From Pseudomonadales bacterium (lineage in GTDB: Bacteria; Pseudomonadota; Gammaproteobacteria; Pseudomonadales; Azotimanducaceae), in contig OZ220680.1 of assembly GCA_965116345.1 (NCBI GenBank), positions 3,976,330 through 4,040,329 on the forward strand: a stretch of 64,000 nt of DNA, given 5' to 3'. The notes beneath the pieces were generated by a model. The model was not told the DNA's origin and searched no databases. It saw only the letters and a list, made by a program, of their open reading frames with translations. A program made the position numbers and the translations under genes. Below are positions 4,564 to 64,000 of the stretch, one piece after another (position 1 is the stretch's first letter; the number at the start of each line of letters is the position of its first letter).

Positions 4564-5229
4564 ATGGATTTCATGGGGTTGTTCGACTATGCCGTGCGTT
4601 GGGGTCACTACCTGTTCGGCATCACCTGGATTGGCCTGCTCTACTACTTCAACTTCGTTCAGGGCGGCTACATGGCGGCGGCGTCGGACGAAGCGAAGGT
4701 CGATGCGTTCACCAAGCTCGTGCCGAAAGCGTTGTGGTGGTTCCGCTGGGGTGCGTTCTTCACGTTCCTGACCGGCCTCTACCTCCTGTACCTCGCCATG
4801 ACCGGACTGTCGGTCGACATTCTCCTCGCGGCCTTGATGGCGACCCTGATGTTCCTCAACGTGTGGGGCATCATCTGGCCGAACCAGAAGATCGTGATCG
4901 CCTCCAACGAGTCGGTTCGCGACGGTGGCGAGGCCGATCCCGCAGCCGCCGGGGCCGCCGCCAAGGCGCTTCTGGCATCGCGCACCAACACCTTCCTGTC
5001 GATGCCGATGCTCTTCCTGATGGGATCCCACGGCCACTTCATGCTGGGTGCCATGGGCGATTCGGGGCTCGGCGGGATGACATCGCTGTGGGTCGGTGTC
5101 GTCATCATCGCCGCCATCGAGGCCAATGCGATCTGGGGCAAGACGATGGTCCTGACCACCGTGCGGGGCGTGATCGTCTCAAGCCTCGTGCTCACCGTCG
5201 TCATGGGCTTGATGGTGGCAAACCTCTAG
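4564..5229 (+). CDS. Polytopic inner-membrane protein of unknown function (weak resemblance to the N-terminal membrane domain of PuuD-like proteins)
   Basis: Several hydrophobic helices; VRWGHYLFGITWIGLLYYFNFVQ motif; strong codon periodicity. The family call is weak. Confidence 0.6.
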   Translation: MDFMGLFDYAVRWGHYLFGITWIGLLYYFNFVQGGYMAAASDEAKVDAFTKLVPKALWWFRWGAFFTFLTGLYLLYLAMTGLSVDILLAALMATLMFLNVWGIIWPNQKIVIASNESVRDGGEADPAAAGAAAKALLASRTNTFLSMPMLFLMGSHGHFMLGAMGDSGLGGMTSLWVGVVIIAAIEANAIWGKTMVLTTVRGVIVSSLVLTVVMGLMVANL

Positions 5230-5256
5230 GGAAGGTCTGAGTAAGACCTTCCCTAG
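5226..5256. repeat. Solo copy of the MITE terminal hairpin CTAGGGAAGGTCT-N5-AGACCTTCCCTAG
   Basis: Perfect 13-bp stem identical to the hairpin at the right end of the elements at 18555-18710 and 24369-24525. Overlaps the TAG stop at 5227-5229. Confidence 0.85.
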
Positions 5257-5393
5257 CGCGGTTGCGCTTCAGGCAACCCGTCACCACACGGGTTGCCTGG
5301 ACGACCTCGAGGTCGCGACCTCCTGAGCGCTAGCGCGAAAGTCCGGCAGGCTGCTAGTCTTTTGCAATCTTTTCTCACACTGGGAGAGTCCTC

Positions 5394-17038: not shown

Positions 17039-18543
17039 GCGTGCGCGGCTTCGTCGTCGCACTGGGGCTGGCCTTCGGAGCGGCGGCTGCGAGCGCTGCG
17101 GATGAGGCCATCGTCGTCGCCAGCAAGAACTTCACCGAGGCCTACATCCTGGGCGAAGCGGTGGCGCAGCTCTTGGAGAGCGAAGGCTTCGAGGTCGACC
17201 GCAAGCTGGGCCTGGGCGGCACCAAGATCTGTTACGACGCACTGGTCGCGGGGGACATCGACGTCTACGTGGAGTACACGGGAACCATCGCGGAGGCCAT
17301 CAAGAACATCGACGGCGAGCCGACCCGCGAACGCCTCGCCGACGTGCTCGCTCCCGACGGTGTCGAGATGCTCGAGACCTTCGGCTTCAACAACACCTAC
17401 GCACTCGCGGTCTCGGAGCAGGTGGCGACGGCACGTGGTCTGACGCGGATTTCCGATCTGGGTTCGTATCCCGCTCTGCGCATGGCCGTGTCCCACGAGT
17501 TTCTCGAACGCGGCGACGGCTGGCCGAGCCTGCAGCGCGCCTACGGCATCGAGGAGGTCCCCGCCGGCATCGAGCATGCGCTCGCCTACCAGGCCATCGC
17601 CGACGGCGCCATCGACCTCACGGACGCCTATTCCACCGATGGCGAATTGAACCGCTATGCGCTGACGGTGCTCGACGACGACCTCGGGTTCTTCCCCGTC
17701 TACCTGGCCGTGCCGCTGGCGCGTTCCGACCTCGATGCCCGCGCCAAGGACGCGTTGCGGCGTGTCGCCGACACGTTGAACGACGCCGAGATGCGGGAGA
17801 TGAACGCGGCGGCGGTTTTGGGCGGCGAGAACACCGTCACGGTGGCCACGGCGTATCTGGTGGACAAGGGAATCGTGGCCGGCGATGGCGCTGCCGATGG
17901 GCCACGGTTTCGCGATTCGCTGACGGGCCGTCTCGCCGCCAACACCACGCGGCACCTGGAACTGGTGCTCCTCGCGCTGTTGCCGGCCAGCGTCCTGGCC
18001 GTGCTGCTCGCGCTCGCCATCTTCAAGTCGCCGGTGCTCTCCCGTGCCGCGGTCTACGTCGCCGGACTGCTGCAGACGGTGCCGTCGATCGCACTCCTGG
18101 CGCTGCTGATTCCGCTTGCCGGGATCGGCGTGTTGCCGGCGGTCGTGGCGTTATTCCTCTACGCGCTGCTGCCGATCCTGCGCAACACGGTCACCGGCTT
18201 GACGTCCATCGAGCCGACACTCCGCCGCGTCGCGGTGGCCATGGGACTCTCACCCGCAGAGGAACTGCGCCACGTCTTCGTGCCGCTGGCCATGCCGAGC
18301 ATCATCGCCGGGGTCCGCACCGCCGCGGTGATCAGCATCGGCACCGCCACGCTCGCCGCCTTCATTGGCGCCGGCGGACTCGGCGATCCCATCGTCAAGG
18401 GACTTGCCTTGAACGATACGCGGCTGATCTTGGAAGGTGCGATCCCGGCTGCCTTGCTGGCGGTCGTCACCGAGCTGGTGTTCGAACAGGTCGAGCGTTG
18501 GTTGGTGCCGGGCCACCTCCGGGCGACGAACGCCGGCGGTTGA
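17034..18543 (+). CDS. Fused osmoprotectant-binding domain + ABC permease
   Basis: Signal peptide, OpuBC/OpuCC-like binding domain (NFTEAYILGE..DVYVEYTGT), then permease TMs (EAA-like loop). ATGA overlap with the ATPase gene. Confidence 0.85.
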
Positions 18544-18554
18544 TCAGACCTTCC

Positions 18555-18710
18555 CTAGGTATCCTCTGATCAAGCCCGTCCATGGGCTTGATCAGGAGAA
18601 AAACAAAAGCGCGGTTTTGTTTTTCTGACAAATTCAGTGGCTTGCGCCACCGAATTTGGCGGCACGTCCTTGTGCCGCGCTAGGGAAGGTCTTAATCAGA
18701 CCTTCCCTAG
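18555..18710 (+). mobile_element. MITE-like element, copy A (156 bp)
   Basis: Ends CTAGGTATCCTCTGATCAAG / CTTAATCAGACCTTCCCTAG form a 15/20 imperfect TIR, with 4-5 internal hairpins. One loop nucleotide differs from copy B. Preceded by an extra half-site ATCAGACCTTCCCTAG at 18543-18558. Confidence 0.8.
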
Positions 18711-19507
18711 GCCGAATCCGCCCCCGAGGACTCGCGCTGGCCGGCGATTCTCGCCTGCATCCGGCGCATGCCGTTCAACCACCGCTCCAGGTCGCTGGTC
18801 TTGCGCGCCATCCACGTCTCGGCGATGGAATCGGTGAGAATCAGGAAGCGCTCCGCGTAGACCGCATCGGAGACCATGCGGGCGACTTCTTCCGGCTCCT
18901 TGACCGGCCCCGCGGCGGTGCTGGCGAATGCCGACGAGCCATCGCCCAGCATGGGTGTTCGCACCCCCAGTGGCGCGAGCAGGGACACCCGGATGCCGTT
19001 GTCGTGGTAGGTGATCGACAGCCATTCGGCGAGCCCGACCACCGCGTGCTTGGTGACCGCGTAGGTCAGGTTGCCGTGACTCGTGAGGATGCCCGCGATG
19101 GACGCCGTGTGCAGCAGGTAGCCGGACTCGCGTTCGAGCATCGAAGGCAGCACCGCGCGCACCGCGTACACGTGGGCCATGACGTTGACCTGCCATTGCT
19201 CGTTCCAGACGTCGATTTCGGTATCGAGGGGTGTTCCGCCGGTGGCGATGCCGGCGTTGGAGAAGAACACGTCCACCGGGCCGTTCGTGCGTTCGGCCTC
19301 GGCCACCAGGGCGTTGACGTCCGCCTCGTTCGCCACATCGCAAACCACCGCGTGTCCGTCGATCTCCCGGGCCACGCGGCGGGCGTCGTCGCCGTTGACG
19401 TCGGCAACCACGACGCGGGCACCCAACCGGGCGAACTCGCGCGCTGATGCCGCGCCGATGCCGCTGGCGCCGCCGGTGATGATGGCGTGCTTGTCCGCCA
19501 GGTCCAT
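18707..19507 (-). CDS. Short-chain dehydrogenase/reductase (SDR)
   Basis: TGGASGIG cofactor motif and YAVTKHAV (YxxxK). ATG 19507 preceded by AAGGAGGG. The stop TAG lies in the MITE terminal CTAG. Confidence 0.9.
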   Translation of the reverse strand: MDLADKHAIITGGASGIGAASAREFARLGARVVVADVNGDDARRVAREIDGHAVVCDVANEADVNALVAEAERTNGPVDVFFSNAGIATGGTPLDTEIDVWNEQWQVNVMAHVYAVRAVLPSMLERESGYLLHTASIAGILTSHGNLTYAVTKHAVVGLAEWLSITYHDNGIRVSLLAPLGVRTPMLGDGSSAFASTAAGPVKEPEEVARMVSDAVYAERFLILTDSIAETWMARKTSDLERWLNGMRRMQARIAGQRESSGADSA

Positions 19508-19627
19508 TGAACTGCCCTCCTTCACAACGCGGGCCGACGCCAGTGGACGCCAGCGGTGCGTTCTTGGCGTTTCCTCGGACGACAGCGTAGCATCCGCCGC
19601 TTGGCATCGTGCGGGGAGGTGGAGAGC

Positions 19628-21769: not shown

Positions 21770-22083
21770 CGAGGCCCGTTTGGGCGGCCGCGTTACCGAA
21801 CGATCTCTTGCCGTCGAGACGATCGATCGCAACGGTCGCCCCCATAAGCGCCAACCAGTTCTGGGTGCGCCGAATACGCGACGTACAGCAACCTACCCCA
21901 GGGAACCTACGGGTTCGACTGGCTCGAAGTTCCTTGGCTACTGGACGTTCAGTCCACTTGATTGGGACTTCAAGATGGCTGATGCCGCTGCGTGTCCAGA
22001 TCAGGCACCGGATTGCGCGTTTTCTATGTCCATAGGTCCGATATCGTGGGGCTTGGGTTGCGGGGGATGACGGCGACCAAAAC

Positions 22084-22308
22084 ATGAGGAAGTTCGGCGC
22101 GTTCCTAGTGTCGGTGGTGCTGGTGTTTCCAGCGGCGGTCTTGGCAATCGCTGGAATAGTCGGCCTGCTAGGATCGCTGGCCGACATTACGATGTCGGCG
22201 AGCATGCAGGTCCTGTTGTCAGGGGCTTGTCTGTTCGTGTCCATCGTGGTGGCGAACATGGCGTACTATTGGATCATCCGACGCATGGATGAGACATCGA
22301 ACGAGTGA
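22084..22308 (+). CDS. Small two-TM membrane protein, unknown function
   Basis: 74 aa with two hydrophobic helices and the charged tail RRMDETSNE; lies in the lower-GC islet. Confidence 0.5.
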   Translation: MRKFGAFLVSVVLVFPAAVLAIAGIVGLLGSLADITMSASMQVLLSGACLFVSIVVANMAYYWIIRRMDETSNE

Positions 22309-22528
22309 GGGACGCACAGTCTGTTGACTCCTGATCGCGGCTTGTACGTGTTCAGAACATCGCTTCGCACGCCAGTTGATGCGTTGTAGGACGGAGACGG
22401 GTACGCATGCGTGTTCCGTCGCGCATACTTGTGCGACGTTGGCACCGGAATGTTGGCGAAGCACCATCGCAACGTGGTCAACGGGATTGATGTTTGCGGG
22501 TGCGGGCAAGGTGGCACGGCTTAGAGCC

Positions 22529-22858
22529 ATGCGGCCTGTTCGGGCCGACTGCAGGGTGACGGACAACGGCACCGTCCTTAGTGCAGGTTCGAGCGCTAAT
22601 GTCCTGATCTATTCGAACAAGAACTGCCCGGCGGGAACCTCAGCGCAACTATGCCGCGAGGCTAGGGCCATCGCGAGGGAGATCCAAGCGGTTTACCAAG
22701 AGGTCAAGGAGGCCGTCGGTCCCAACGACCTTGTTAGGGTCGACTTGTACGACAAGCTACATCCAGGGGGCCCGCCGGACCCCGGCACAGGGGGAGTATC
22801 GCCGCCCTGGCCGGATCGACCTGCGGCGGGGCGCGCCCGCAAGTGCGATTCACCATGA
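22529..22858 (+). pseudogene. Possible N-terminal portion of the HEXXH protein, separated from it by a +1 frame change
   Basis: The ORF overlaps the next ORF by 128 nt in an adjacent frame. G5 runs at 22766-22770 and 22790-22794 are candidate slip sites. Coding status is uncertain. Confidence 0.35.
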
Positions 22859-23333
22859 GATGGGACATGCCTTCTTCAACGATCACATCCAGACTACAGG
22901 GCATCTTCAAGAATGGGGCTCGGAGGAGGGGATTGGTATGATCTTCGAGGAAGCGCTCGGGGCTGCGTCGCGACGCGACCCACGCGCGGCAACGGTCGAG
23001 GGCGTCCTACAAGTATGCTCAGTGGATCTTGACTGCGCCTACGAGTTAGGAAGGCTCGTAGCCAAGCGATACCGCGAGGTGAAAGAGATAAGGAACAAGG
23101 ACTACGCGCTCAAGGTGTACCTAGAGGCGGTGAGGAACGTTGAGGTGGCCGTGACTCCAGACTCGCTCGAAGAACGGGTGAACACCGAGATGGAGAGAAT
23201 TGACGGACGAGAAGACCACGCGGAGGACGATTATGTTAATGAGGACGAAGAGGAACGTGCGAATCGGGAGTTCGATAATTCACCCACTGACACCGGCTTC
23301 TTTGACGATTGGGATGAGAATTGGGAAGAATAG
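22731..23333 (+). CDS. HEXXH zinc-metalloprotease-like protein with a strongly acidic Trp-containing C-terminal tail
   Basis: IHHEMGHAFFNDH motif followed by EEGIGMIFEE (possible third ligand); tail DDYVNEDEEE..FFDDWDENWEE. No family recognised. Confidence 0.55.
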   Translation: MLGSTCTTSYIQGARRTPAQGEYRRPGRIDLRRGAPASAIHHEMGHAFFNDHIQTTGHLQEWGSEEGIGMIFEEALGAASRRDPRAATVEGVLQVCSVDLDCAYELGRLVAKRYREVKEIRNKDYALKVYLEAVRNVEVAVTPDSLEERVNTEMERIDGREDHAEDDYVNEDEEERANREFDNSPTDTGFFDDWDENWEE

Positions 23334-23449
23334 CGGGGCTCGCTCAATTTGGACGAATTCTTGGAGTCTCTAAGCAAGCTCGTCGGGCTCCCTCGCGACG
23401 CCGAAAGCCGAGGACCGCACTACGGCCCATGATAAGGGGCGGGAGGAAA

Positions 23450-24358
23450 ATGCAGGCGGTGATGGCGACGTTGCTGGCGGCGGTCCTGTTTGTCGTGCTG
23501 GCGTACTCGCGCAGTGGTGTGGACACGGGACTTCCCGTGGTCGAAACAGAGCGTGAGCCGGTGTCACCGCGACCCCCGCCGGCCACGCGGGTGGACCTGA
23601 CCGAGCCGGCGACCGGCACGGCGAAGGCCGCCGGGAAGGAATACGCGGCGCCGCCGTGCGACGGATGCCTCAACGAGCCCGAGGTACTGGACGTGGCAGA
23701 GACGTTCGTTTACCACATGCGCCATGAAAAACACATCGGCTTACGGGCCGAGCTTTACTCCGACATCGCCGCTAGCCTCGAGGCTGCGGGGCAGCCCGCT
23801 CCGCACGAGACGCGACTTCCTAAGCTTCCGCAGGGGCTGGTGGACGCTCCGCCGGATCGTTCGATGAGCGGCAGGGTGCTCCCCCTCGTGGATAGGCCAG
23901 CAGAGACCTGGGTTATCTGGGTGCAGGAAGGCTGGTTCGACACCCAGTCCTACATCGATGGCGGCATCCTTCCGCCGATCGCAGCCTCATGGCCACCACT
24001 CAAACATGAGAAGTTCATGCTCATAGATGCTCGCAGCGGTGAAGTGTTCGCGGATGACATTTGGCGTAGTAGACATCGTCGCAGTCTGGGTGCCTACGGA
24101 GATATTGCTGCGCAGGCTGCCGGGAAACGCGCCGAGCACTGGATCGCCAAGAGGTCAGTCCCCTGGCCCGCATTTGTCACCACGCCGCTTGTGCGAACAA
24201 CATATGCTTCGAATATCAGTTGCTTGTGTCGGAATCCCGAGGTGTCGGAATTTGCAGACTGCGCTGGCCGCGAGCGCGCGCTCCAAGGAGCGCGTTCGCA
24301 CGGGGCCAAAATCCTCGAACGCGCCCGCAAGGGCGCGCATCATCGCGGCCCGTGGTGA
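23450..24358 (+). CDS. Membrane-anchored protein, unknown function (weak PepSY-like motif)
   Basis: ATG 23450 after GGGAGG; TM ATLLAAVLFVVLAY; Pro-rich linker; FMLIDARSGEVF resembles the PepSY DAxTGEV signature. Confidence 0.55.
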   Translation: MQAVMATLLAAVLFVVLAYSRSGVDTGLPVVETEREPVSPRPPPATRVDLTEPATGTAKAAGKEYAAPPCDGCLNEPEVLDVAETFVYHMRHEKHIGLRAELYSDIAASLEAAGQPAPHETRLPKLPQGLVDAPPDRSMSGRVLPLVDRPAETWVIWVQEGWFDTQSYIDGGILPPIAASWPPLKHEKFMLIDARSGEVFADDIWRSRHRRSLGAYGDIAAQAAGKRAEHWIAKRSVPWPAFVTTPLVRTTYASNISCLCRNPEVSEFADCAGRERALQGARSHGAKILERARKGAHHRGPW

Positions 24359-24368
24359 GAAATTCGGG

Positions 24369-24525
24369 CTAGGTATCCTCTGATCAAGCCCGTCCATGGG
24401 CTTGATCAGGAGAAAAACAAAAGCGCGGTTTTGTTTTTCTGACAAATTCAGTGGCTTGCGCCACCGAATTTGGCGGCACGTCCTTGTGCCGCGCTAGGGA
24501 AGGTCTTAAATCAGACCTTCCCTAG
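24369..24525 (+). mobile_element. MITE-like element, copy B (157 bp)
   Basis: Identical to 18555-18710 except for one extra A in the terminal hairpin loop; flanked by CTAG on both sides. Confidence 0.85.
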
Positions 24526-25406
24526 CCCGCGAGCGCCCAGGCCATGCCGACGACGGTGATGGTCGTCCAGGCGAAGAAGCGCTGTGCCCTTGGACCCGCG
24601 AGGTGCAGCCTCGTCTTGGCCACCTGGAGGCCGATCAGGAAGCCGGCGATCAAGCCGGTGAGGTGGGCGACGACGTCGGTGTCCTGGCCAGCGGTTCCGG
24701 TGTAGGCGAAGAACGCGAACGCGGCGAACACCGGGGCGAAGCGGTGTTGCCAGCGACCGCGGCGGAAGTAGCCGCTTCGCCACATGAACGCACCGACCAG
24801 GCCCACGGCGGCGAAGGTCGCGGTGGATGCGCCGATGGACATGAAGAACTCCGGTCGCACCAGGACGTTGAGGGCGTTGCCCAGCGTGCCGCCGCCGACG
24901 ATGCACAGCCACGCCAGGCCGGATCCCAGGTAGCGGCCGGCCAGCACCCCGAACAACGCGCCGAACAACGAGTTGGCGACGATGTGGGGCACATCGGCGT
25001 GCAGCGTGAGCGCCGTCACCAGCCGCCAGAACTCGCCCGACATCACCGATGCCACGTGGATCCGGCCGATGGTGTTCCAGTCCCAGCCGAAGAGGTCGGC
25101 TCCTTGGGCGAACATCACCCCCCAGATGACGCCGAGGTAGGCAAGCACGCCCGGCCAGCCACTGTCGATCCGCACCGGCAGCACGGGTGGTGGTTGGGGG
25201 ACATTCTCGCCTTCGTACGCGGCGAGCTCGGCGGCGGCGGCATCGACATCCTCCTGCGCCACGAGCAGTCGCCAGGCACCGGCTTCGTGACCGATGCGGC
25301 TGTCGATGCCCCGGGCGGTCAGGACGAGCTCGAACGTGCGCAGATCCCGTCGTTCGCGTCCGGTGCGCAGGACCAGCCAGTCTTCGTCGTCGGACATGGG
25401 AGTCAT
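24522..25406 (-). CDS. Rhomboid family intramembrane serine protease
   Basis: GASTATF (GxSxxxF) and AHLTGLIAG catalytic motifs, 6-7 TMs, cytoplasmic N-terminal domain. Start ATG 25406 (ORF open to 25601). The stop TAG is inside the MITE terminal CTAG. Confidence 0.85.
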   Translation of the reverse strand: MTPMSDDEDWLVLRTGRERRDLRTFELVLTARGIDSRIGHEAGAWRLLVAQEDVDAAAAELAAYEGENVPQPPPVLPVRIDSGWPGVLAYLGVIWGVMFAQGADLFGWDWNTIGRIHVASVMSGEFWRLVTALTLHADVPHIVANSLFGALFGVLAGRYLGSGLAWLCIVGGGTLGNALNVLVRPEFFMSIGASTATFAAVGLVGAFMWRSGYFRRGRWQHRFAPVFAAFAFFAYTGTAGQDTDVVAHLTGLIAGFLIGLQVAKTRLHLAGPRAQRFFAWTTITVVGMAWALAG

Positions 25407-25472
25407 GTTGGCACGGCCAGCGGGTCTTGATCGAGTAACATCGAGGGTTGGCAATCGCAAAGCGAAATCTGC

Positions 25473-27131
25473 ATGAACAGCGTTGAGTACGTCGCCCGGA
25501 TCCTCAAGGACGAGGGCGTCACCTGGATGTCCTGCTATCCGTCCAACCCACTCATTGAAGCGGTGGCGCGGGAGGGGATCCGTCCGGTCGCCTTCCGCCA
25601 CGAGCGTGGGGCCGTGATGGCCGCGGATGGGTTCTCGCGGCTATCCGACCGCCGGCGCTTCGGGGTCGTCGCGGTGCAGTCCCAGGCCGGTGCCGAGAAC
25701 TCTCTCGGCGGTCTTGCCCAGGCGAATGCGGACAACGTCCCGATCCTCGCATTGCCCGGTGGCAATCCCCTCGACATGCTCTTCGTCCGGCCCAACTTCT
25801 TCGCCGCCACGACCTGGGCGCCGGTGTTGAAGCGCGCCGAAGTCATCACCCGGCCCGACCAGACCGGCAACGTCATGCGCCGGGCCTTCCACGCGCTGCG
25901 GTCCGGACGCCCGGGGCCGGTGCTGGTGGAAATGCCGGGCGACGTGTGTGCGCAGCCGATTCCGGAGAACGCGCCGGGATATTCATCGCCGACCCCCGCG
26001 CTGTATGGGCCGTCGGCCGGCGCCGTCGCGGATGCCGCGAAGAAGCTCGTCGAGGCGCGCGAACCCCTGATCTGGGCTGGTGCCGGGGTGATGACCGCCG
26101 GGGCGACCGGCGAACTGCGTGCCCTGGCCGAGCTGCTCGATGTTCCCGTCTACACCTCGATGCCGGGCAAGTCGGCCTTCGACGAACGTCATCCCCTGTC
26201 GGTCGGTGCCGGCGGCAGCACGGTCGCCGGTCCCGCGCGGCAGTGGCTCGATGATTGCGACGTGCTGTTCGCGGTCGGTACCTCGCTGACCGCGACACCC
26301 TACGGCCAGCGTTTTTCGCGCGGCAAGTTCCTCATTCACTCGGTGATCGCGGACGACGAGATCAACAAGGACACAGCGGCCGACATCGGTCTCGTGGGCG
26401 ACGCCAAGCTGACCTTGGAAGCGCTCCTCGATGCGGTCAGGGGACTGATCGGCGAGACCGGACGCGACACTGGCGTGCGGGCGCGGGTCAAGGCCGCGCG
26501 GGACGCCTGGCTCGCCGCGTGGCAGCCGTATCTGACCACCGACGACGGGCCGTTGTCGCCCTACCGGGTCATCCACGAGATGAACCGCGTGCTCGACAGC
26601 GAGACCAGCGTCGTAACCCACGACGCCGGCGCGCCGCGCGACCAGATCTTGCCGTTCTACACGGCCACCACACCGCACAGCTACGTGGGCTGGGGCAAGA
26701 CCACGCATCTCGGCTTCTCCATCCCGCTGATGATCGGTGCCAAGATGGCGGCACCGGAGCGCATGTGCGTCAACCTCATGGGGGACGGGGCCTTCGGCAT
26801 GTCCGGTCTCGACATCGAGACCTCGGCCCGGGCCGGGATCCCGATCACCACGATCGTGCTCAACAACGGCGTGATGGCGACGTACCCGGGCGGATTTCCG
26901 ACCGCGCGGGAGAAGTACGGGGTATCCCACATGCAGGGCGACTATGCGGATCTCGCCAAGGCCATGGGCGCCGAGGGGATTCATGTGGCCGAGGCTGCCG
27001 AGATGGGTCCCGCGCTGGAACAGGCGAAACGCCTGAACGCCGACGGCAAAACGGTGCTCATCGACGTCAAGACGCGAGCCGAGGACTCCCGGTCGCCGGC
27101 ACGATTCGCCAAGAGACCAGATGGTGAGTAA
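25473..27131 (+). CDS. Thiamine diphosphate-dependent enzyme (acetolactate synthase / 2-hydroxyacyl-CoA lyase superfamily)
   Basis: 552 aa; ThDP motif GDGAFGMSG...NNGVM; N-terminal Pyr-domain pattern. Subfamily not assignable by eye. Confidence 0.85.
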   Translation: MNSVEYVARILKDEGVTWMSCYPSNPLIEAVAREGIRPVAFRHERGAVMAADGFSRLSDRRRFGVVAVQSQAGAENSLGGLAQANADNVPILALPGGNPLDMLFVRPNFFAATTWAPVLKRAEVITRPDQTGNVMRRAFHALRSGRPGPVLVEMPGDVCAQPIPENAPGYSSPTPALYGPSAGAVADAAKKLVEAREPLIWAGAGVMTAGATGELRALAELLDVPVYTSMPGKSAFDERHPLSVGAGGSTVAGPARQWLDDCDVLFAVGTSLTATPYGQRFSRGKFLIHSVIADDEINKDTAADIGLVGDAKLTLEALLDAVRGLIGETGRDTGVRARVKAARDAWLAAWQPYLTTDDGPLSPYRVIHEMNRVLDSETSVVTHDAGAPRDQILPFYTATTPHSYVGWGKTTHLGFSIPLMIGAKMAAPERMCVNLMGDGAFGMSGLDIETSARAGIPITTIVLNNGVMATYPGGFPTAREKYGVSHMQGDYADLAKAMGAEGIHVAEAAEMGPALEQAKRLNADGKTVLIDVKTRAEDSRSPARFAKRPDGE

Positions 27132-28278
27132 CAGGCAGGAACCGTTCGCGGAGCGGGTGGTCAAGTTCGACCGCCCGGTGCGTTCCCACGCGCTGCTGCT
27201 CGACGCGCACGGGGCTTTCCTGGGTGTCGGCACGAACGGTGAGTTGGAAGCGTTCGACATCGCCGACGACCGGGTAATCTGGGACCGTGGGGACGGCGAC
27301 GTGAGGCATGTGGCGACGGGGCGCAGATTGCCTGTTGCCGAGGGTTTCGTCACCGCCATGGGCGAGCGCTTCGCCCTGTCGCACGGCCCGGAGAAACTGC
27401 CCTCCGAGTACCTGGAGACCATGGAAGCCAACGGGTGGGTGTGCCTGACCAGCCTCCTCGCGCCCGAGGTGGCCGATGGTCTTCGACGGGTGGCCTGCAC
27501 GGACGAATACGCCGACCGGCCGCGGGACACGTCGCGCGGGGCCATCTGCCAGGACATCGCGGTGGCACGCGCGGCCGCCGAACCGGTTTCGCTTTGGCTG
27601 ATCCGCGAGTACATGCGCACCGCCGACATCTGCATGGCGCATGCCCCCGCCCTCGCGGTGCTTGGCAGGGACGACGGCAAACGCCGGGTACAGGGCTGGC
27701 ATTCGGACTACCCGTACCACTGGGGCGTGCCGGCCCCGGGACAGGTGCCGATACAACCCGGGGCGACCCGGCTCGGCGTGCAGCGCAACGTCTGCGTGTC
27801 GGATTTCACCAAGGTGGGCGGCGCCACGGTCTTCAAGCTGGGCTCACATGCCAGGAACCAGGGGCCCCCCGACGAGTGGGGTACGGCGGCGCTCCACGCC
27901 CGGGCCGACTACCGTGCCCGATACGGACTGCCCTACAACGGCCCGGATGCCGACATCATCGAGGCGCCGGGCGGCAGCATCATCCTGTACGACGCGCGCA
28001 CCTGGCACCGCGCCGGCATCAATCGCACGGACAATCGGCGCGCCGCGATGCTCCAGGCCATGGTGCCGATGTACGTCATGCCCAAGGTGGACATGGGCGC
28101 GGCCTACAAGCAGTTCGCCGCGAGCGACGTCTACGCCGAGATCACGCAACGCGAGCGCCGTGAACTCGAGGCCCTACTGGTCCGCCGGCTTCCCGGTCCG
28201 CCCCTCCACGGTGCGCTCGCCACGGATCGGGAACTGGCCGCCCTCGTGAAGCGGGACGCGGCTCCCGGCGGCTACTAA
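27121..28278 (+). CDS. PhyH-family Fe(II)/2-oxoglutarate dioxygenase with ~90 aa N-terminal extension
   Basis: WHSDYPY (HxD) and ARTWHRAGINRT (distal His, Arg). 11-nt overlap with the ThDP enzyme gene. Confidence 0.8.
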   Translation: MVSNRQEPFAERVVKFDRPVRSHALLLDAHGAFLGVGTNGELEAFDIADDRVIWDRGDGDVRHVATGRRLPVAEGFVTAMGERFALSHGPEKLPSEYLETMEANGWVCLTSLLAPEVADGLRRVACTDEYADRPRDTSRGAICQDIAVARAAAEPVSLWLIREYMRTADICMAHAPALAVLGRDDGKRRVQGWHSDYPYHWGVPAPGQVPIQPGATRLGVQRNVCVSDFTKVGGATVFKLGSHARNQGPPDEWGTAALHARADYRARYGLPYNGPDADIIEAPGGSIILYDARTWHRAGINRTDNRRAAMLQAMVPMYVMPKVDMGAAYKQFAASDVYAEITQRERRELEALLVRRLPGPPLHGALATDRELAALVKRDAAPGGY

Positions 28279-28392
28279 GAATGCTCTGATCAAGCCATCC
28301 CTGGCTTGATCAGAAACGCAAAAGCAAAGAGCGCGTCCCCAGCAGTCGCTTCTGACTGATTGGCGCGAAGCCACCGGTCTCAGACCAACCGG
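28275..28392 (+). mobile_element. MITE-like element, diverged/partly decayed copy C
   Basis: Left end CTAAGAATGCTCTGATCAAG matches the copy A TIR 17/20, and the TGATCAAGCC..GGCTTGATCA hairpin is conserved. The right end is reduced to GGTCTCAGACC. Overlaps stop codons of both flanking genes. Confidence 0.6.
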
Positions 28393-45355: not shown

Positions 45356-45726
<371 letters not shown>

Positions 45727-63857: not shown

Positions 63858-64000
63858 CTAGGGAAGGTCTGATTAAGACCTTCCCTAGCGCGGCACAGGG
63901 ATGTGCCGCCAGATTCAAGGGCGCAAGGAGTTGAATTTGCACGCAAAAAAAAGACCGCGCTCTTGTTTTTGCGTTTCTGATCAAGCCAAGGACGGCTTGA
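63858..64000 (-). mobile_element. MITE-like element, diverged copy D, opposite orientation, truncated by the window end
   Basis: Starts with CTAGGGAAGGTCT-gatta-AGACCTTCCCTAGCGCGGCAC. The internal A/T-rich hairpin and TGATCAAGCC..GGCTTGA hairpin are conserved in reverse order. Confidence 0.75.

Follow-up and report, generated by a model that had tools for sequence, protein, structure and literature searches.

The question raised by the DNA analysed here, a stretch of 64,000 nucleotides (nt) from a Pseudomonadales bacterium (contig OZ220680.1, positions 3,976,330 to 4,040,329; referred to as the window), is what kind of element a structured repeat of about 156 bp represents, which occurs in near-identical copies at the ends of genes. 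The repeat is very probably a non-autonomous transposable element of the miniature inverted-repeat type (MITE) of ~148 bp with a 4-bp duplication on each side, mobilised in trans by a DDE transposase of the IS5 group. It is a new MITE family within a known class, with a distinctive interior of five hairpins (H1 to H5) and two subfamilies in this genome.

To delimit the element, a covariance model was built from 26 copies and used to score the copies of the window, in which four long copies and one stand-alone palindrome were found:

18555..18710, plus strand: copy A, 156 bp including both CTAG duplications (18555-18558 and 18707-18710); covariance model 182 bits
24369..24525, plus strand: copy B, 157 bp, equal to copy A save one extra A in the H5 loop; 178 bits
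28275..28335, plus strand: copy C, 61-nt truncated left end of the second subfamily with a CTAA duplication, the left repeat GAATGCTCTGATCAAG, H1 and half of H2
63858..64000, minus strand: copy D, second subfamily, inverted; the window end cuts off the left ~15 nt
5226..5261, no strand assigned: stand-alone H5 palindrome, CTAG + 23 nt + CTAG (31 nt, 5226-5256), then CGCGG
18543..18558, plus strand: half H5-type palindrome (right arm + CTAG), which adjoins copy A, the left CTAG being common to both

An earlier note on this DNA had described copies A and B as differing by a single loop nucleotide, and the alignment bore this out, since after 141 identical nt B has an additional A in its last loop. 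The identity begins and ends exactly at CTAG on each side, and the outer flanks are unrelated. The inverted diverged copy listed in that note at 63858-64000 was likewise recovered (63858-63999 on the minus strand, 91 bits) and is ~94% identical to a second-subfamily copy in another locus, L104 (L numbers designate loci outside the window). The diverged copy given as 28275-28392 stands as a left end (28275-28335) only, because the sequence that follows up to 28392 is unrelated to the element; this left end is ~92% identical to the second subfamily and reached just 27 bits. Pairwise alignment revealed that copies C and D form a distinct subfamily, whose H1 is shorter and whose H2 and H3 hairpins differ. 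The solo hairpin at 5226-5256 proved to be the 31-nt terminal palindrome. Its region matches the element over 36 nt with 97% identity and scored 45 bits, the CGCGG behind it being the initial 5 nt of the H4 side. This palindrome, CTAGGGAAGGTCT-N5-AGACCTTCCCTAG, is present at three places in the window (5226, 18680 and 63858), compared to none in 100 shuffles. The 16-bp duplicate of the right end in front of copy A was also verified: ATCAGACCTTCCCTAG at 18543-18558 repeats 18695-18710. A marginal match to the model was obtained at 22320-22448 (14 bits, E ~0.03). The supposed decayed relic at 583-665 had to be rejected (E >= 1).

A census, which the earlier note had proposed, showed that members of this family are scattered in large number over several related genomes and over metagenomes. 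Scanning one genome per species with the H1 hairpin yielded at least 75 loci. Most of the matches listed came from a few metagenome-assembled genomes: at least 15 loci belonged to Pseudomonadales bacterium OY761542, at least 17 to 277c_34, at least 10 to Gammaproteobacteria bacterium SB0662_bin_58, and at least 10 and at least 5 to two Ca. Azotimanducaceae genomes. Full-length copies in these genomes are 80-93% identical to copy A, and the genes of the window share 67-73% nucleotide identity with one Ca. Azotimanducaceae genome, which makes the source organism a relative at about family level. A metagenome scan with the H5 core gave at least 120 loci and added many full copies, most of them, among the matches listed, from LXNJ01/LXNI01. 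An alignment was made of 68 model matches (E <= 1e-12) from the fetched loci and the window. Forms that have lost internal parts but retain both ends are common and comprise H1+H5, H1+H4+H5 and forms of ~130 nt without H3. H1-pattern matches in Pseudomonas, Burkholderia, Hydrogenophaga and Microbulbifer were discarded as unrelated hairpins, and a blastn search of a plasmid collection with the element returned only chance matches of ~20-35 nt. Copies A and B are separated by a single indel, whereas copies in other genomes differ by 8-20%, which argues for recent transposition in this genome.

If the repeat is a MITE, its flanks should carry a target-site duplication, and the earlier note had regarded the CTAG at both ends as compatible with a 4-bp YTAR-type duplication as made by IS5-group transposases. 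For IS5, the target consensus is Py-T-A-Pu, mostly CTAG, the listed sites including CTAG, CTAA, TTAG and CAAG (PMC5493358). In an alignment of 33 copies with their flanks, conservation starts at the junction YTAG/GAAACCTC and stops at the junction CTTCC/CTAG. Identical flanking 4-mers were found in 25 of 46 well-registered two-ended copies. Eight of these 25 pairs are not CTAG (CTAC, TTAG twice, CTAA three times, TCAG and CTGG), whereas 1.5 such pairs among the 46 copies are expected when partners are shuffled (p ~1e-5), and there was one inverted non-CTAG match. Copies of the Ca. Azotimanducaceae lineage have no CTAG in the internal arm of H5, which leaves the terminal 4-mer unpaired, and matching non-CTAG 4-mers flank three of the five copies. 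In the spectrum of 4-mers CTAG is by far the most frequent, followed by CTAA and TTAG, then by CCAG, CTGG and others. Because the non-CTAG pairs match beyond chance and are rarely inverted, the flanking 4-mers indicate a 4-bp duplication of a YTAR-like target and not a repeat that merely ends in CTAG.

A clean pair of an empty and a filled site for this family of terminal repeats exists in an unrelated organism. In a human-gut metagenome (L165, 2089-2300), a sister MITE of ~175 bp with the same ends (GGAACCTCTGAATAAAT...ATTTAATCAGAGCTTCC) sits in a duplicated CTAA. The same locus is empty in more than 30 other assemblies (including L086, L090 and L095), where the stand-alone 31-nt palindrome CTAG-GGAAGCTCTGAATCAGAGCTTCC-CTAA directly adjoins host sequence. 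In L063 and L165 a complete terminal palindrome adjoins the MITE and the 4-mer is common to both, the arrangement found in truncated form before copy A. This analogy supports the nested or tandem insertion that the earlier note had suggested for copy A. Stand-alone palindromes with non-CTAG flanks were checked for direct repeats, but the informative cases were few and the flanks seen in them were inverted. One junction, occupied in L043 but empty in the window, is consistent with insertion into a stop codon, the two loci being matched by 45% protein identity only. If the interpretation as a MITE is true, the empty alleles of sites A (18555) and B (24369) should read GGTTGATCAGACCTTCC-CTAG-GCCGAATCC and GAAATTCGGG-CTAG-CCCGCGAGC, each with a single CTAG.

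The ends of the element are conserved in the aligned copies (26-copy alignment; 33 copies with flanks). The terminal repeats and hairpins of copy A are arranged as follows:

18559..18574, plus strand: left terminal inverted repeat, GTATCCTCTGATCAAG (family consensus GAAACCTCTGATCAAG)
18566..18595, plus strand: hairpin H1, CTGATCAAGCCC / GGGCTTGATCAG; the inner part of the left terminal repeat forms its 5' arm
18597..18626, plus strand: hairpin H2, A/T-rich 12-bp stem
18630..18657, plus strand: hairpin H3, AAATTCAGTGGC / GCCACCGAATTT, with a conserved A.C mismatch
18659..18678, plus strand: hairpin H4, GCGGCAC / GTGCCGC
18680..18710, plus strand: hairpin H5, formed by the tip of the right repeat and an inverted copy of it inside the element; the stem runs into the CTAG duplication
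18691-18706, inside H5: right terminal repeat, read inward GGAAGGTCTGATTAAG

Read directly from the sequence, the 20-nt ends of copy A, CTAG included, match in 15 of 20 positions as inverted repeats, in agreement with the earlier note. H1 and H5 each consist of a segment of a terminal repeat and an internal inverted copy of that segment. The element is smaller than 300 bp, its interior is made up entirely of hairpins, and no similarity to a transposase was detected in the window.

The link to the IS5 group, which the earlier note had suggested, was supported by the terminal repeats of IS5-type insertion sequences (IS) and by the precedent of MITEPsy1, an element of Pseudomonas syringae pv. phaseolicola. 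The ends of E. coli K-12 IS5 are GGAAGGTGCGAATAAG and GGAAGGTGCGAACAAG and agree with the right end of the element in 13 of 16 positions. On its left side, the first 11 nt of the repeat of copy A equal the right repeat of MITEPsy1, and the right repeat of copy A also agrees with MITEPsy1 in its first 11 nt. The search for a partner started from L104 (2765-3266), where a MITE of the second subfamily is found downstream of a homologue of PhyH, a gene that also neighbours copy C. This MITE is directly followed by a frameshifted remnant of an IS5-type transposase bounded by half a palindrome and CTAG. Protein searches with the remnant led to L203 and L204 and then to L205-L207. The former two hold the IS type of the latter in truncated form and show 56-60% identity to InsH (tblastn). 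L207 (2937-4137) contains an intact IS whose left end GGAAGCTCTGATTAAGTCC adjoins CTAG and whose right end CTAGATCAGACCTTCC is again followed by CTAG; between them lies a gene for a protein of 316 amino acids (aa) with the domains DUF772 and DDE_Tnp_1. In L205 and L206 (2936-4129) the same IS is flanked by CAAG on both sides. The left end of this IS5-group IS of ~1.2 kb, GGAAGCTCTGATTAAG, agrees with the right repeat of the MITE consensus in all 16 positions, and the right end of copy A (H5) matches the right end of the IS in L207 at 14 of 16. L205-L207 come from metagenome assemblies which also hold contigs of relatives. To judge from the ends they share, a DUF772+DDE_Tnp_1 transposase of the L205-L207 type is predicted to act on the MITE.

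Elements with the same ends and other interiors occur elsewhere. A 151-nt element in L053 (7569-7727), a metagenome-assembled genome of the Chromatiales, has the same terminal repeats and H1, an unrelated interior and TCAG on both flanks. The elements of L053 and L165 and MITEPsy1 are sisters that have their ends in common while their interiors are unrelated, and from the L053 element it is clear that the mobilisable unit is defined by its ends and not by its interior.

Several observations weigh against this interpretation of the repeat. The autonomous IS with the same terminal repeats that the earlier note had called for exists in L205-L207, but neither the 64-kb window nor the 75 genome loci contain an IS5-type transposase gene (tblastn with InsH) or a pair of terminal repeats 0.4-4 kb apart that bounds an autonomous IS. 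The partner was seen in other assemblies only, and its taxonomic link to the window is indirect; moreover, IS and MITE are alike only in the 16-nt ends and share no subterminal similarity. A clean empty site was not found for this particular family. At the loci of rhomboid orthologues in L077-L082, whose proteins are 76-91% identical to the rhomboid protease encoded next to copy B, there is no element copy and the rhomboid gene stops with TGA or TAA, but the intergenic DNA cannot be aligned with the window. Around half of the copies have non-identical flanking 4-mers, which may be due to decay. Finally, the terminal 4-mer and the internal CTAG of H5 co-vary in several copies as the two halves of an inverted repeat (CCAG/CTGG, CTTG/CAAG, TTGG/CCAA, CGAG/CTCG), as seen in the outer 4 bp of H5 in L028, L058, L060, L110, L169, L174, L189 and L199. 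This is awkward because the terminal 4-mer should derive from the target. A possible source of the co-variation is hairpin-templated correction from one arm to the other.

The same co-variation of the H5 arms, outer 4 bp included, could be expected of a repetitive extragenic palindromic (REP) or REPIN-type element moved by a RAYT, a tyrosine transposase of the IS200/IS605 kind that works on single-stranded hairpins; the REP unit would then be H5. H5 is indeed short and palindromic, has a conserved tetranucleotide at the foot, is found alone or in composite mosaics, and superficially resembles REP/BIME sequences. This explanation is nevertheless very improbable. The foot of H5 is CTAG on both sides instead of a single GTAG head, full copies are flanked by direct 4-mer duplications, which are not a product of RAYT/IS200-type transposition, and the ends match terminal repeats of the IS5 group in 16 of 16 positions. 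In addition, the genome possesses a separate, classical GTAG-headed REP family, and no Y1 (RAYT) transposase was seen beside any copy.

For the interpretation as a MITE of the IS5 type, established knowledge of IS5 suggests the following mechanism. The transposase (316 aa, N-terminal DUF772 and catalytic DDE_Tnp_1) would recognise the 16-nt terminal inverted repeats, GGAAG[G/C]TCTGATTAAG on one side and G[A/T]A[A/T]CCTCTGATCAAG on the other, and would introduce 4-bp staggered cuts at YTAR-like targets, CTAG being preferred. Upon insertion of the element the tetranucleotide would be duplicated. At 66% G+C, CTAG is depleted four-fold, and many YTAR sites fall on stop codons. The duplication would then restore a stop codon on each side and leave both convergent genes intact. 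Copies may accumulate at the 3' ends of genes because insertion into a stop codon leaves the neighbouring open reading frames (ORFs) unchanged. The 31-nt H5 palindromes are presumably derivatives or minimal relatives of the element, whose YTAR flanks may serve as insertion sites for further copies, as at copy A, L063 and L165. The hairpins H2-H4 retain their pairing by way of compensatory substitutions. An active IS5-group element is predicted elsewhere in the source genome.

How closely the element is tied to stop codons can be judged from its surroundings. The window is a chromosomal region of 66% G+C with groESL, rpoN and the gene of the RNase P RNA (bacterial class A, 45359-45726, plus strand, full length, 307 bits). 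Copy A lies between the convergent genes of an OpuAC-permease fusion and an SDR protein, and the SDR gene (18707-19525, minus strand) has its stop codon in the right CTAG of this copy. Copy B is flanked by a 345-aa ORF and by the gene of a rhomboid protease (24522-25601, minus strand), the stop codon of which is contained in the right CTAG. Copy C is placed between PhyH and rpoN, its CTAA including the TAA stop of PhyH, and copy D comes after a transglutaminase-like gene. The gene 4564-5229 precedes the stand-alone palindrome, whose left CTAG provides the TAG stop of that gene. All window copies are thus situated at gene 3' ends, three of them between convergent genes. Of the five stop codons that had been reported at the element termini, four (5229, 18707, 24522 and 28278) do lie within the flanking 4-mers. 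The fifth, at 28380, is that of rpoN and does not fall within the element; rpoN natively ends with the GGTCTGA found there, which is conserved in the relative L082.

An ORF of at least 100 codons has its stop codon in one of the duplicated 4-mers in 33 copies out of 54 (61%), as against 36% of control YTAR sites. The stop-codon enrichment is real but moderate, and it is largely due to the location of YTAR sites in a genome of 66% G+C. The idea that insertion is targeted at TAG- or TAA-containing sequence holds insofar as the link to stop codons exists, but it mostly reflects the distribution of YTAR sites. CTAG is found 48 times in the window where 202 would be expected, and element copies account for ten of these occurrences.

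Some further properties of the surroundings were noted. CTAG, CTAA, TTAG and TTAA are depleted 4- to 8-fold in the window, and GATC (463) and TCGA (621) are strongly over-represented, each against 202 expected. The TGA stop of the OpuAC-permease fusion gene (18541-18543) is positioned at the edge of the truncated H5-type palindrome, and the C-terminus of the encoded protein is three codons longer than in the relative L077; the end of this gene may have been remodelled by insertion (18541-18558). The region 22000-24400 has a lower G+C content (0.61 compared to ~0.66) and includes the 345-aa ORF (23321-24358), for which there is no Pfam match.

The chain of hairpins in the interior raises the question of whether the structure itself is of use to the host. 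RNA folding of both strands gave five consecutive hairpins with -88 and -92 kcal/mol (z ~ -12). The interior described as a hairpin chain in the earlier note is therewith upheld, except that the fourth hairpin, H4 (18659-18678), had been missed. Such an extremely stable fold on both strands could mean that the element is a domesticated structural module, its hairpin chain being selected to give read-through transcripts from the convergent neighbouring genes a stable 3' structure, as a bidirectional transcription stop or as a block to 3' exonucleases, with the IS5-type ends as the vehicle. A role of this kind as a stable 3' structure has been proposed for REP, ERIC and Correia elements. This explanation is compatible with a MITE, to which it adds a host function; it is on the whole unlikely. 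The position of all window copies at gene 3' ends, three between convergent genes, is in its favour, but relatives lack the element at the same gene junctions, and the orientation with respect to flanking stop codons shows no significant bias (24 versus 15). None of the hairpins is followed by a U-tract or predicted to be an intrinsic terminator. Between 18300 and 18900, no terminator-like site was found on either strand and the scan revealed no promoter-like site.

The sequence comparison of 26 copies bears on the same point. In these copies, 90% of the stem cells are paired, compared to 28-49% in controls with slid partners, and 11 pairs have changed on both sides, compared to 3.4 +/- 1.0 in shuffles. 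However, the copies are related, and the shuffles hence overstate the significance. H2 and H3 vary in sequence by lineage and are retained as hairpins, four pairs of H3 having changed on both sides. On the other hand, hairpin-templated repair can keep palindromes without selection. The complementary strand folds better as RNA in 25 of the 26 copies, but this asymmetry can be traced to an inherited A.C mismatch or two; when counted by position, G.T mismatches (22) and A.C mismatches (19) balance each other. The asymmetry of wobble pairs between the strands was consequently discarded as a sign of selection at the RNA level. Both arms of H1 are nearly invariant, 11 of its 12 pairs never varying, which is consistent with a role in protein binding. 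Taken together, the case for a host function of the hairpins is weak. It may be asked whether H2-H4 are retained by selection on read-through RNA or on DNA structure, or by hairpin-templated correction. A broader proposal would be that the interior is a selected cassette, either a bidirectional module for transcript ends or stability or a DNA structure guiding the transposase, and that the 31-nt terminal palindrome is a self-contained unit which recruits end-targeted insertions to its YTAR flanks and homogenises its arms including the target-derived 4-mer. It would make the repeat a MITE family with a function at the level of the host or of transposition encoded in secondary structure, but it is put forward here as a speculation with little probability.

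The strong, conserved multi-hairpin fold with its covariation might also point to a multicopy family of small-RNA genes or another cis-regulatory RNA that resembles a transposon. This is extremely improbable. A promoter-like site was not found, and the search against Rfam yielded no match at the gathering threshold or with a convincing E-value: the window gave RNase P only, and the best match of the element, permissive E-values included, had 19 bits at a threshold of 41. The copies are inserted in either orientation, overlap stop codons and possess terminal inverted repeats, target duplications and internal-deletion derivatives, and the sister elements of L053 and L165 and MITEPsy1 have only the ends in common with them.

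As a non-autonomous MITE, the element shows in a well-delimited case how a genome of high G+C content is colonised by an IS5-type MITE. A rare target, CTAG, is often situated on stop codons, and the stop codon would be restored by the duplication, which would permit cost-free insertion at gene ends and create the appearance of stop-codon "capture". For the annotation of uncultured marine and sponge-associated gammaproteobacteria, the family would explain a recurrent repeat of ~156 bp that interrupts assemblies and gives rise to spurious ORF ends, and it is ready for use as a covariance model. The hairpin chain and the palindromic ends constitute a reasonable system to ask whether the structure of bacterial MITEs is selected. 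The current understanding of transposition is left unchanged.

Compared to known systems, the element has some traits of the REP/REPIN-RAYT elements, namely short palindromes with a conserved tetranucleotide, occurrence as single or composite units and an extragenic position at gene ends. It differs from them by direct 4-bp duplications, IS5-type repeats and CTAG instead of GTAG. The window also harbours a separate REP-like family headed by GTAG, GTAGGGGCGACC...GGTCGCCC, with units at 536-589 and 2162-2215 that form a 54-nt inverted pair, 89% complementary and 1.57 kb apart. GTAG-REPs were also seen in L077 (12170-12230) and L082 (10900-11100 and 14150-14200), and relatives carry them in the same intergenic spaces in which the window has the MITE.

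Correia/NEMIS elements of Neisseria, ERIC of enterobacteria and RUP and BOX of pneumococcus are intergenic repeats of ~100-160 bp with terminal inverted repeats, which form stable hairpins when transcribed, are often co-transcribed with their neighbours and exist in modular and deleted variants. Correia elements duplicate TA, and BOX is without terminal repeats or a duplication. The present element is similar to these groups in size, intergenic site, stable hairpins and modular or deleted variants. It is distinguished by the transposase family and the target, and its fold is a linear chain of five hairpins and not one end-to-end stem. With E. coli IS5 it shares ends that start GGAAGGT... (13 of 16), a YTAR target and a 4-bp duplication. 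In contrast to IS5, it has no transposase, and even with the partner-type IS of L205-L207 it has only the 16-nt ends in common.

The closest counterpart is MITEPsy1, an element of 100 nt with the repeats GGAAGGTCTGAAAAAGCC and GTATCCTCTGAAAAAGCC (Bardaji et al. 2011, PMC3189936). It duplicates 4 nt, CTAG or YTAA, has been attributed to ISPsy2 of the IS5 family and was caught in vivo transposing into sacB (PMC3189936). Both elements are non-coding, ~100-160 nt in length and associated with a 4-nt duplication of the CTAG/YTAA type. They have in common the asymmetric pair of ends GGAAGGTCTGA... / GTATCCTCTGA...AAGCC, and their left ends agree in 18 of 21 positions (GTATCCTCTGATCAAGCCCGT versus GTATCCTCTGAAAAAGCCCAT). 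By contrast, MITEPsy1 belongs to another host group, and its interior is unrelated and devoid of the five-hairpin chain. Only in the present element does the right repeat fold as a perfect palindrome, H5, and the left repeat as H1, and there are two subfamilies and many internal-deletion forms. Since the likeness is confined to approximately the first 20 nt of each end, the element is, by sequence comparison, a sibling of MITEPsy1 at its ends and not a member of the MITEPsy1 sequence family.

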